NCBI GenBank assembly: GCA_043827025.1
Contig: JBDRPL010000002.1
Span: 1 to 63,124 of the forward strand
Reading direction: 5' to 3'
DNA length: 63,124 nt
Source: Candidatus Micrarchaeota archaeon
Lineage (GTDB): Archaea; Micrarchaeota; Micrarchaeia; Anstonellales; Bilamarchaeaceae
In this document: positions 26,161-29,358 of the stretch, one piece after another
How the letters are laid out: each line of letters starts with the position of its first letter
Position numbering within the stretch: position 1 is the stretch's first letter
Made by a program: the position numbers and the translations under genes
Notes under the pieces: generated by a model
Seen by the model: the letters and a program-made list of their open reading frames with translations, nothing else
What the model was told of the DNA's origin: nothing
Database searches by the model: none

Positions 26161-27270
26161 ATGTCAAAAAAGATTAAGTGCGCTGTTGTCGGAGTCGGAA
26201 ATTGCTTTGCCGGCCTTGTGCAGGGAATAGAATATTATAGGCAGAACCCCGAACAGAAGATAATAGGTATAATGCATGAAAGCCTTGCTGGATATACAAT
26301 TCACGACATAGAATTCGTATGTGGTTTTGATGTTGGCGAGAACAAGATAGGCAAAACCATCAACGAATCCATCTATGAATATCCAAACATGATTACTTGG
26401 ATTCCAAATGAAAGGATGCCCAAAACAAACGCACGTGTTTATGAGAGCCCTGCACTTGACGGAGTAGGTATATGGGTCGAGAACAGAGTTAAAGCTATCC
26501 AAAGCAAGAAAACAACTGAACAATTGACTGAAGAAGTGAAGAAAGTGCTGAAGGACAATGGAGTTGAGATATTGGTCTCATATCTTCCAGTTGGCTCTGA
26601 AAAAGCCACAAAATACTGGGCGCAGGTCTGTCTTGACACTAAAACAGCATTTGTCAACTGCATGCCCTCGTTCATTGGTTCAGATCCAGAATGGGCCAAT
26701 AAATTTAAAGCTGCCAATTTACCTATCGTATCGGACGACGTGAAAGGGCAGGTCGGAGCGACGATAGTGCACAGAACACTTGCAAAGCTTTGCGACGACC
26801 GCGGAACAAAGATAGAGAAAACATACCAGATAAATGTTGGTGGAAATACGGATTTCCTTAACATGAAGGAACAGGATAGATTGGTGAGCAAAAGGATAAG
26901 CAAAACAGAATCAGTCCAGAGCCAATTAAAGCAAAGATTGCCTGATGACCAGATTTACGTTGGTCCAAGCGACTTCATTCCCTTCCTAGGAAATACGAAA
27001 CTGATGTTCATGCGCATAGAAGGCAGGCAATGGGCCAACATTCCATACAACATGGAAGTAAGGCTTGAAGTGGATGATAAGTCAAATAGCGCAGGAATCG
27101 TAGTTGACGCAATAAGGGCTTGTAAATTAGGCTTAGATAGAAAATTAGGCGGACCCTTAATTGGCCCGAGTGCATATTTAATGAAACATCCGATAATGCA
27201 AATGAGCGATGCAGAAGCAAAAAAAGAATTTGAGATGTTCATTGAAGGAAAAAACTATCGTAAATATTGA
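26161..27270 (+). CDS. ino1: myo-inositol-1-phosphate synthase
   Basis: VGVGNC, YLPVGS, DDVKGQVGAT, GGNTDFLNM, SKTESV and YLMKHP motifs. Confidence 0.92.
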   Translation: MSKKIKCAVVGVGNCFAGLVQGIEYYRQNPEQKIIGIMHESLAGYTIHDIEFVCGFDVGENKIGKTINESIYEYPNMITWIPNERMPKTNARVYESPALDGVGIWVENRVKAIQSKKTTEQLTEEVKKVLKDNGVEILVSYLPVGSEKATKYWAQVCLDTKTAFVNCMPSFIGSDPEWANKFKAANLPIVSDDVKGQVGATIVHRTLAKLCDDRGTKIEKTYQINVGGNTDFLNMKEQDRLVSKRISKTESVQSQLKQRLPDDQIYVGPSDFIPFLGNTKLMFMRIEGRQWANIPYNMEVRLEVDDKSNSAGIVVDAIRACKLGLDRKLGGPLIGPSAYLMKHPIMQMSDAEAKKEFEMFIEGKNYRKY

Positions 27271-28371
27271 CAACACACTGATAATATTCTGGAATTACGC
27301 CAAAGTATTCTTTTTTATTCAATATCTTAAGAGTAGCTATGACCATCTGTAGAGGACTTTTAAGTTCACCTCTTCGAATATGTTCAAATTGTCGATAAGT
27401 AAATGGGATTTTTGAATATTTGTTTATTTCATCCACAGTTTCTTTGTCAGTCCCGATTTGTTCTTTCAGTTCAATAAGAATATTTGGAAGTAATTTAAAT
27501 GGTATCCGCGCACGTTGATAAATTTTATATATAAATTTCTGAAGCTTACCATGTTTCTTACGATTTAGAAAACCAATGTTAGTATAGAAGTGGATTATTC
27601 CAGAATGGTTACTTATAAAAAGCATAAATATAGATTTGTCATAATCTGGATATTTCGCATATTTGGTTTTTCTTATATGGATATTTCCGCTTGAAACCCC
27701 AAAATCGTTTAGAAGCTGTTTGATCTGAAACATAAAAGTTTGCCCAGATGAAAAACAATTATTATGTTTATTAAAACAAAAATTTATTTCCGCAGTACTC
27801 CTAGTATGCCGAATTGAAATGCTACCATCAAAGCTAAATAAAACCTTTAAAAAAGAGGATTTTATTTCTTTAGTTCCGAGAATAATCCATTCAGGAACAA
27901 GATAATTTTTAGTGGTCTTATCTCCACACGGAACTCCGAGTGAAATCAAAAGTCGAGCCAAAGGAGCGCAATAAACTATGGCCTTGAATGATTCTTTTCT
28001 AGAAAACCCACTAGTAGAACGATATTTTACAACCTTGCCGTTTATATGGAACAAATCATAAATTTTTTCTAAGAACCATTGGCATTCATTTTTATAGTTT
28101 GAGTAAAGAATAATCTTTTTTGTCATTGGATTTCCGTCATAATCATTCCAATCTATGTGCCCATCGGTCAATAAAGCAGCAAATATCTGGGCAATATCTT
28201 CAGAAGGATAAACTGGAAACCATGAAGAAACCATCTCCTTATGCTTATCCCTAATCTTATGGAATTCTATGAAGTCTTGATAAGTCATTAAAGGTTCCAG
28301 CACATTAAAGTTCGATTTTTCCTTATTTAACTCCTTTTCGGAACACCTCACTTCCGCACGCGGAAATGAAA
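27211..28371. mobile_element. Homing-endonuclease cassette inserted in the ino1 3' end (replacement C-terminus plus antisense HEG)
   Basis: AT-rich block bounded by homologous ino1 tails starting GCAGA at 27211 and 28372. Confidence 0.65.
27239..28288 (-). CDS. Free-standing double-motif LAGLIDADG endonuclease (intein/DOD type) with C-terminal HTH
   Basis: IFAALLTDGHI and FLKVLFSFDGSI motifs, FYTNIGF, YRQFEHIRRGE; no Hint splicing motifs; start uncertain (28288-28381). Confidence 0.85.
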   Translation of the reverse strand: MTYQDFIEFHKIRDKHKEMVSSWFPVYPSEDIAQIFAALLTDGHIDWNDYDGNPMTKKIILYSNYKNECQWFLEKIYDLFHINGKVVKYRSTSGFSRKESFKAIVYCAPLARLLISLGVPCGDKTTKNYLVPEWIILGTKEIKSSFLKVLFSFDGSISIRHTRSTAEINFCFNKHNNCFSSGQTFMFQIKQLLNDFGVSSGNIHIRKTKYAKYPDYDKSIFMLFISNHSGIIHFYTNIGFLNRKKHGKLQKFIYKIYQRARIPFKLLPNILIELKEQIGTDKETVDEINKYSKIPFTYRQFEHIRRGELKSPLQMVIATLKILNKKEYFGVIPEYYQCVVNIYDSFFLQ

Positions 28372-28413
28372 GCAGATGCAAAGAAGGCGCTTGAGGAGTT
28401 TGTGAAAGGATAG
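28372..28413 (+). pseudogene. Displaced original 3' end of ino1 (ADAKKALEEFVKG*)
   Basis: Aligns to the current tail AEAKKEFEMFIEG (7/13 aa, 27/39 nt). Confidence 0.7.
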
Positions 28414-28446
28414 AAGATTAAAGCCTTCTGAACAAAGACAAATATC

Positions 28447-29358
28447 ATGGCAATCAATTTGCTAATCGACCTGTTCACGATAGTATTTACTGTGCTGATA
28501 TGCTGGACAGTCTTTTCCATAAGAAACAGCTGGAAGAAGCCTGGTTCGGACAAAAGAGTTCTTGGGATTGAACTTGCGATCTATCTAGGAATTTATTTGG
28601 TTTTTATTTATGCTATCTATTACGCACCCTATCAACTCACAATCAAATATCAGACTTTCCAGATTCTTGATACGCAAAACCCTGTTAAAATCGTCTTCAT
28701 AAGCGATATCCACGCAGGAATTGTCAGTGAAGGATACCTTAGATATGTTGTGGACCAGATAAACAAGGAAGACCCAGACATGATCCTGATTGGTGGCGAT
28801 TTCATACACGTTGACGAATCAGAAACACATATTCTTGAGCCTTTAAGAGGCCTCAAGGCAAAGCAAGGAGTCTACTCTATACTTGGAAACCATGATTACG
28901 GCCTGAGCTGGAGTAACAGAGAAACGGCTGGGAAAGTTAAGGCATATCTTGAATCAATAGGAATCGATGTCTTGATAAACGAAAACAAGGAATTGCAAAT
29001 CGAAGGAAACAAAATCGAATTGATTGGTTTGGGAAGCTATTGGGCAGGAGAAACTGATTATGACAAGGCAACAGAAGGAATTGATGAAAAACTGCCGAAG
29101 ATAATACTTATTCACGAGCAGGAAGGACTAGACATATCAAAGGTCAAAGGAAATGCAATAATACTTGCAGGCCATACTCACTGCGGACAGGTCAGAGTGC
29201 CATTCCTAGGCTCGATTCCAAAACTATTCGGGTTCAAAGGCGATGTGGACATGGAACGCGGTAAGATAGGGCATTACGAGATATACACAACCTGCGGGAT
29301 AGGCGGAACCCCAAGATTTTTAACAGGTCCCGAGATAACGATAATCCGACTTGAATGA
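28447..29358 (+). CDS. Membrane-anchored calcineurin-like metallophosphoesterase (YkuE-like)
   Basis: SDIH, GGDF, GNHD and GHTHCGQ motifs; N-terminal TMs. Confidence 0.9.
   Translation: MAINLLIDLFTIVFTVLICWTVFSIRNSWKKPGSDKRVLGIELAIYLGIYLVFIYAIYYAPYQLTIKYQTFQILDTQNPVKIVFISDIHAGIVSEGYLRYVVDQINKEDPDMILIGGDFIHVDESETHILEPLRGLKAKQGVYSILGNHDYGLSWSNRETAGKVKAYLESIGIDVLINENKELQIEGNKIELIGLGSYWAGETDYDKATEGIDEKLPKIILIHEQEGLDISKVKGNAIILAGHTHCGQVRVPFLGSIPKLFGFKGDVDMERGKIGHYEIYTTCGIGGTPRFLTGPEITIIRLE

Follow-up and report, generated by a model that had tools for sequence, protein, structure and literature searches.

A free-standing LAGLIDADG nuclease gene at the 3' end of ino1 in Micrarchaeota: a probable mobile element that supplies a replacement gene end

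Homing in prokaryotic chromosomes is usually tied to inteins and introns, where the damage to the invaded gene is masked by splicing. In fungal mitochondria, gene hybrids have been described for Glomus atp6, atp9, cox2 and nad3 and, as related in the same source, for atp6 of Allomyces macrogynus (PMC3630166). The locus reported here lies on contig JBDRPL010000002.1 (positions 1 to 63,124, the whole stretch analysed and hereafter the window) of a Candidatus Micrarchaeota archaeon, assembly GCA_043827025.1, where a free-standing homing endonuclease gene (HEG) of the LAGLIDADG type resides at the 3' end of ino1, the gene for myo-inositol-1-phosphate synthase. Similar to the fungal hybrids, as far as that source portrays them, the locus combines a free-standing open reading frame (ORF; LAGLIDADG or GIY-YIG in the fungi), a foreign C-terminus joined in frame to the host coding sequence, a stranded native C-terminus and no splicing, and in related genomes with the element the stranded end is closer to sisters than the end in use. 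In contrast to the fungal ORF, which is presented there as co-transcribed, the ino1 HEG is located on a prokaryotic chromosome, runs antisense and has a predicted promoter of its own; in addition, ino1 is often wholly replaced, and the nuclease is of the intein type with a C-terminal extension. Judged by its sequence, the ino1 HEG would come under the definition of gene-hybrid elements, and a strategy known from fungal mitochondria appears to be used here on a prokaryotic chromosome. We consider it highly probable that the gene is a free-standing HEG specialised on ino1, which is mobile and travels with a replacement gene end.

The free-standing HEGs SegF, SegB and MobE of phage T4, in the accounts of PMC2988022 and PMC13565253 drawn on here, offer a further parallel to the proposed element, as they cut in a neighbouring conserved gene, with long co-conversion, and have to distinguish self from non-self by allele sequence; however, these are intergenic phage genes of the GIY-YIG or HNH type, whereas the ino1 HEG lies inside its target gene and is accompanied by a duplicated tail. 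The best structural matches are DOD nucleases of inteins (TliVMA and PI-PfuI), and there is also similarity to RtcB-intein nucleases, but the ino1 HEG lacks a Hint domain and is not read in frame with ino1. Finally, glycosylation islands of Haloferax contain free-standing LAGLIDADG genes, for which mobilisation of flanking DNA through gene conversion has been proposed (PMC5867893). These are chromosomal, archaeal and free-standing as well, but they are not inserted in a gene, and the relevant part of that account describes no replaced gene end. A literature search that left supplements and most subscription papers outside its reach returned neither an ino1-targeting HEG nor a C-terminal-replacement HEG in archaea.

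In the following, G000 is the genome of the window, G-numbers denote genomes of the family and L-numbers the loci compared. The locus comprises these features:

26161..27270, forward strand: ino1, the host gene (Pfam PF01658 Inos-1-P_synth, E=7e-33)
27211..27270, forward strand: replacement tail in use (AEAKKEFEMFIEGKNYRKY), minimal extent
27239..28288, reverse strand: free-standing double-motif LAGLIDADG endonuclease, 349 aa, tail-to-tail with ino1
27284..27505, reverse strand: C-terminal helical extension of the nuclease (residues ~262-335) with an RQFEHxRR motif, marker of the ino1-linked clade
27827-27829, reverse strand: catalytic D154
28163-28165, reverse strand: catalytic D42
28323..28330, reverse strand: TATA-like box of the predicted nuclease promoter; spacing and position fit the box-plus-TATA pattern
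28348..28369, no strand: pair of promoter boxes in palindromic arrangement (TCACTTCCGC-nn-GCGGAAATGA), right end of the cassette and a cis-element of the lineage
28372..28413, forward strand: stranded native ino1 tail (ADAKKALEEFVKG followed by a stop), an untranslated remnant beginning at 28370-28372
28447..29358, forward strand: metallophosphoesterase (Pfam PF00149), downstream host gene and lineage-specific neighbour

The cassette thus listed consists of an ino1 3' tract, the antisense HEG and the HEG promoter, and extends ~1.1 kb beyond the tail. An earlier note on this DNA had pointed to an AT-rich antisense ORF overlapping the ino1 stop, and this description holds: the GC content of the nuclease gene is 31.5%, below that of both ino1 (41.6%) and the genome as a whole (40.6%), and with its end at 27239 the ORF overlaps ino1 by 32 nt, the final residues of the tail in use being encoded antisense to the nuclease end. 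The start of the nuclease was placed at the ATG at 28288 and not at the TTG at 28381, and the resulting 349 residues are those of database protein P0001; it is the only ORF of at least 80 aa within the insert. Also in agreement with the earlier note, the segment at 28372 is in frame with position 27210 and matches the tail in use at 27/39 nt. The reconstructed ino1 does not, however, abut the next gene as had been stated, since 33 nt lie between the stranded stop and the following ATG. None of 59 further loci had the metallophosphoesterase as a neighbour of ino1, and an empty allele in this setting, which had been proposed as a comparison, was sought among these loci with 1.5-kb flanks and not encountered.

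To judge from sequence comparisons, the stranded tail is the host's own native end. When a profile of 40 empty-allele Ino1 tails was scored on the six-frame 11-mers of the G000 genome, the segment 28372-28413 took rank 1 of 2,647,592 (26.8 bits), while the tail in use scored 21.9 bits and the best unrelated 11-mer 16.8 bits, so that the proposed similarity of this segment to Ino1 C-termini is borne out. Stranded tails of 17-32 bits are present in 6 of the 13 core right flanks (the window, G306, G403, G340, G406 and L123), and G336 has a weaker one in register. The codon at which they begin varies, from the second proline of KHPP in G403 to ~7 codons further on. In comparison with the host sister G338, the stranded tail of G340 is identical at 22/24 nt and the tail in use at 13/24; for G403 and G387 the values are 44/51 and 23/51 nt, and three other relatives match G403 at 37-40 stranded versus 23-31 in-use positions. 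The best-matching empty allele for G000, that of G011, agrees with the stranded tail at 28/36 nt and with the in-use tail at 22/36.

Matches to the nuclease at E<=1e-12 were obtained in 13/99 family genomes. Nine of these belong to a close clade with 45-64% identity (G000, G403, G396, G340, G336, G406, G344, G306 and G239), and the remaining four are segments of intein-like ORFs of 810-990 aa. The linkage of the homologues to ino1, which the earlier note had recommended examining, is pronounced: the nuclease gene is oriented tail-to-tail on ino1 in eight of the nine clade genomes, the contig of the ninth (G239) ending beforehand, and among the metagenome loci, 17/18 of which fall into the clade, 12/17 converge on the ino1 end (two pairs being duplicates) and 3/17 are cut off. 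What defines the clade (support 98) is its C-terminal extension, and its neighbours in the tree are free-standing nucleases of ~260 aa. A protein named from Diapherotrites falls into a deeper subclade, as do contigs L128 and L133, which carry a bacterial fmt above the TIGR00460 cut-off. No viral relatives of the nuclease were present among 30 candidate viral stretches. Ino1 itself was detected in 54 of the 61 genomes searched. In an IF2 host tree built from G000 and 30 of the 40 g19 genomes, those with an occupied locus are dispersed and frequently stand beside empty sisters. As the sequences show, the cassette has entered ino1 repeatedly in scattered Micrarchaeota lineages, stranding the last 12-20 codons of the recipient behind the HEG promoter. 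As a separate observation, clade HEGs also occur on bacterial-looking contigs with fmt and AmmeMemoRadiSam genes (L128, L129, L133, L126 and L130), without a stranded tail; on such contigs the HEG start overlaps the stop of the upstream gene.

Several lines of comparison indicate how much ino1 sequence came in. In a FastTree phylogeny of 61 Ino1 rows of at least 300 aa, shorter rows being excluded, eleven rows form a foreign ino1 clade with support 100 (G340, G403, G406, G336, G191, G414, G299, G413, G344, G021 and L123), which spans three genera and a metagenome contig (g19, G344 of g7, G021 of g21, and L123) and is retained with the N-terminal half alone (support 94). Monophyly of its eight g19 members on IF2, a group that was defined from the Ino1 tree, is rejected (p-AU 1.5e-7), and at least five changes are required. 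Residues 60-180 of G340 Ino1 are 51-52% identical to sister G338 and 81-87% to G336; G340 being near G336 and far from its sister, the whole of ino1 has been swapped in place. G396 and G253, by comparison, are chimeric: through residue 300 they are native, at 80-93% identity to their sisters, and beyond it foreign, at 48-68%; at the DNA level G253 shows 93-96% upstream and 65-74% in most windows past ~500 nt. In G000, the C-terminal part of Ino1 groups with the occupied locus L131 (mg131) and the HEG-less G410 and G010 (support 93) and not with G001 of the same genus, and the GK.YR.Y ending of G000 likewise recurs in occupied L131 and the nuclease-less G410 and G010. On this basis the 3' part of G000 ino1 is foreign; the course of GC3 along the gene did not reveal its left boundary, and position 27211 is a minimal boundary, in G000 only. 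In relatives, the travelling DNA is often a foreign ino1 tract of at least 65 codons, up to the whole gene. Of the earlier proposal that a recoded 3' end is carried in, the replacement end and the stranding of the native end are upheld, but in relatives the tract is often far longer than a recoded tail of 13 codons.

Loss of the element has left traces. The HEG of G306 is reduced to ~56 C-terminal residues; G191 has lost it and retains the foreign tail, the box and the stranded tail; G299 retains tail and box, and G413, G414, G253, G197, G334, G410 and G010 retain only the lengthened tail. A cycle of invasion, degeneration and loss is expected for homing genes, and these scars complete such an invade-and-decay cycle. 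Together with the repeated occupancy, the stranded tails matching host sisters and the patchy distribution, they bear out the notion of a mobile, non-splicing cassette at the 3' end of ino1.

A probable course of events is that the nuclease, once donor DNA encounters an ino1 allele that is still empty, would cut this allele at the KHP|P codons or further upstream, because the longest stranded tail begins there. The left end would then be resected and repaired on the donor ino1, with the consequence that at least 65 codons or the entire gene are overwritten, while the right end would rejoin within the first codons of the recipient tail via short homology, possibly provided by the donor's own stranded tail, the box or a shared downstream gene. 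Splicing would not be needed, since the incoming allele is complete. More speculatively, the HEG might be transcribed from a host promoter box common to repair genes and would therefore be switched on during DNA damage and recombination. As to self-immunity, the earlier note had expected the insertion to remove the cut site; this was not borne out, as several occupied alleles retain the residues MKHPP.Q.SD as in empty alleles, and nucleotide and residue scans near the junction revealed no column that separates all occupied from empty alleles. The only tendencies were GPS before LMKHP, which is found in 2/18 empty alleles outside g19, and a change from proline to isoleucine or leucine.

A number of observations weigh against a mobile, ino1-specific HEG. 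GPS precedes LMKHP in 11/12 occupied and 9/9 scar-type alleles, yet also in 15/21 'empty' g19 alleles, and some of these are evidently of a type that has been invaded again, a pattern that would be compatible with successive nuclease variants. Six of the 13 core right flanks, and all scored flanks of the deep clade, have no stranded tail. For G000, the comparison with G001 of the same genus is undiscriminating (23 versus 23 positions), and no very close empty sister was available. In two of the 17 metagenome loci (L138 and L139, with the same protein) the HEG is divergent and upstream of ino1; the HEG and ino1 trees are incongruent with respect to G344, whose HEG is split over two contigs; and the host tree is that of one gene in metagenome-assembled genomes. 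One alternative is an island of ino1 and nuclease that is moved passively by horizontal transfer and homologous recombination, with the nuclease hitchhiking or cutting elsewhere, e.g. competitor or viral DNA. Whole-gene replacement is common, there is no immunity signature, and in the bacterial-looking contigs ino1 and HEG stand within an otherwise co-directional gene run. However, foreign alleles occur chiefly at loci with a HEG or its scar, the HEG marks the end of the conversion tracts, and the right junction keeps to a range of ~7 codons although the downstream contexts are unrelated, all of which is hard to obtain without a targeted break; we therefore regard passive movement as unlikely. 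Somewhat less probable still is a domesticated WhiA-like DNA-binding regulator that has been retained beside ino1, the duplication being an old accident. WhiA has the same layout of LAGLIDADG and helix-turn-helix (HTH) domains (Z 16.3), linkage to ino1 persists on archaeal contigs as well as on bacterial-looking ones, and no stranded tail is seen in the deep clade. Regulators of the WhiA/DUF199 type have lost the catalytic acids and are stably inherited by vertical descent, though, while both acids are kept across the present clade; moreover, the gene occurs in just 9/99 family genomes, scattered and with deletions and scars, and the stranded tails differ in the codon at which they begin and in the host sister that they match.

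The intein-type fold of the nuclease and the duplication of the 3' end, as in integrative elements, might point to a spliced element (an intein, or a group I or bulge-helix-bulge intron) or to an integrase-type element with target duplication. We hold this to be very improbable. The ORF is antisense and contains neither a Hint motif, in agreement with the earlier note, nor a terminal HN/HQ motif, no frame leads through the insert on the plus strand (the longest measures 58 codons), an Rfam scan gave no match at E<=1, and the upstream ino1 allele is complete; nor is there an integrase in the 1.1 kb, and the repeat is inexact with a right junction that varies between genomes. That the locus is an assembly chimera of two strains, a concern for any metagenome-assembled contig such as that of the window and one raised in the earlier note, is refuted: in run X1, which may be the source sample, a single contig covers 25400-29800 with zero differences, contigs of X2, from another study, are identical over 28294-28499, which includes the right junction, and over 27063-27214, and the same architecture recurs in many genomes.

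Both LAGLIDADG motifs reported previously are present in the nuclease, and D42, K124 and D154 are invariant in an alignment of 15/15 homologues; throughout the clade, in the tree set, the catalytic acids are D or E. The Pfam match of the G000 protein to LAGLIDADG_3 is marginal (E=0.08), but all 15 aligned homologues match the family, the best at 8.6e-8. An AlphaFold model (pLDDT 91.8) retrieved a best Foldseek E of 2.7e-10 and aligned in VIA-align to the TliVMA intein nuclease with Z 20.1 (rmsd 2.1 over 184 residues), to PI-PfuI with Z 18.9, to WhiA with Z 16.3 and to I-DmoI with Z 15.1, while similarity in NCBIfam and the Atlas pointed to RtcB-intein nucleases; none of the 15 members has an intein match in Pfam. 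The modelled fold is accordingly of the intein type as had been suggested, whereas direct descent from an intein is unproven, because the nearest relatives in the tree are the free-standing nucleases of ~260 aa and the ino1 intein nuclease is distant. Descent from the latter was ruled out, as it is placed far off in the nuclease tree. The C-terminal extension, which is absent from the ~260-aa sister family, is probably an XRE-like HTH according to the model. Residues 262-335 gave only middling matches to XRE/Cro HTH proteins (Z 5-5.7 in VIA-align), which lends partial support to the C-terminal HTH of the earlier note; no Pfam HTH family was matched by the 15 members, and modelling the domain from one sequence gave a confidence too low to be of use (pLDDT 47). 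Among the ~260-aa LAGLIDADG proteins without extension (L039-L047, L051, L052 and L140), 4/12 adjoin a tRNA-Ile or tRNA-Gly in ARAGORN predictions, and a fifth adjoins a tRNA of no assigned type.

The right ends of most occupied and scarred loci carry TCATTTCCGC. The element TCAYTTCCGCRG occurs in 75/99 family genomes, mostly without a HEG and with a reversed control near zero; the box is thus not element-specific, and its interpretation as an element-specific end or HTH operator was dropped, although the HEG may still regulate itself through it. With TATA spacing, the box clusters in g19 (14/15) and is rare outside it (22/301 genomes). In a survey of 70 loci with 72 sites, a subset of ~306 matches, a TATA-like sequence follows 9-25 nt past GCGGAARTGA at 46/72 sites, as compared to 4/72 on the opposite side and 2.4% at random, and the promoter of the nuclease is the only exact match to the box-plus-TATA pattern in the G000 genome. 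Among 25 ORFs downstream of a box, seven encode other LAGLIDADG proteins, six IS605/TnpB, two Nre and two XPD/DinG-like proteins, and one each DUF763, Cdc6, Cas6, a methylase and a HAD protein; three are without assignment. A small DUF736-like gene also recurs downstream of the box. G000 has a second palindromic copy at C32:38019, before a Cdc6/Orc1-like ORF. GCGGAARTGA was likewise seen ~12-16 nt ahead of TATA in L149-L218, at C32:38019 and at 28348-28369 of the window, and hairpins follow several box copies.

The Sulfolobus Orc1-2/DDRE regulon offers a parallel: a short TTTC-containing box lies upstream of promoters of repair genes and an orc1/cdc6 paralogue (PMC6061795). The g19 box similarly precedes TATA at repair-type genes and Cdc6; the consensus given in that source is ANTTTC as opposed to TCATTTCCGC. 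From its gene set it might be regarded as a candidate DNA-damage regulon element of genus g19, and whether it is damage-inducible we would put at even chances. As the box is common to Nre, XPD, DUF763, a cdc6 paralogue, TnpB and other free-standing nucleases, expression of the HEG may be tied to DNA damage.

ino1 and its 3' flank harbour other insertions. An intein-like in-frame insertion at Ino1 residue ~229 was observed in L070-L075 and L120 (G010, G026, G054, G046, G035, G020 and G222), with open frames of 700-860 aa where complete and a nuclease unrelated to the HEG at the ino1 end; G010 carries both this insertion and a HEG-type tail scar, and two selfish elements therefore share ino1. 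In L072 (G054), the ino1 tail is repeated, apparently without change (MKHPPKQYSDPQAREMLEEFIKG), ~95-190 nt past the ino1 stop, behind a short spacer and with no HEG, and this repeat would represent the scar of another small insertion. In L011, L012 and L020, toxin-antitoxin-like small gene pairs (HicAB-like and MNT-HEPN-like by eye) directly follow ino1, which makes its 3' flank an insertion hotspot.

With the ino1 HEG family, a conserved archaeal gene would be invaded without splicing, by means of spare coding sequence. As invasion, stranded tail, decay and scar all occur in natural sister pairs, the target and the rule of self-immunity are directly testable. The family also represents a new set of predicted compact meganucleases, and the box might prove to be the first DNA-damage regulon element known from Micrarchaeota. 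It might be speculated, as a possibility we rate below even, that the system as a whole is a natural gene drive acting on DPANN chromosomes, in which whole metabolic-gene alleles are overwritten between genera and the stranded tail serves as a homology arm that travels along, in an ino1-bound family reaching into bacteria and wired into an undescribed host DNA-damage regulon (GCGGAARTGA) that TnpB and other free-standing nucleases of the lineage also use. Since a whole ino1 allele can travel along, discordant single-gene phylogenies in DPANN would find an explanation, and it follows that genera of these episymbionts exchange DNA with one another.

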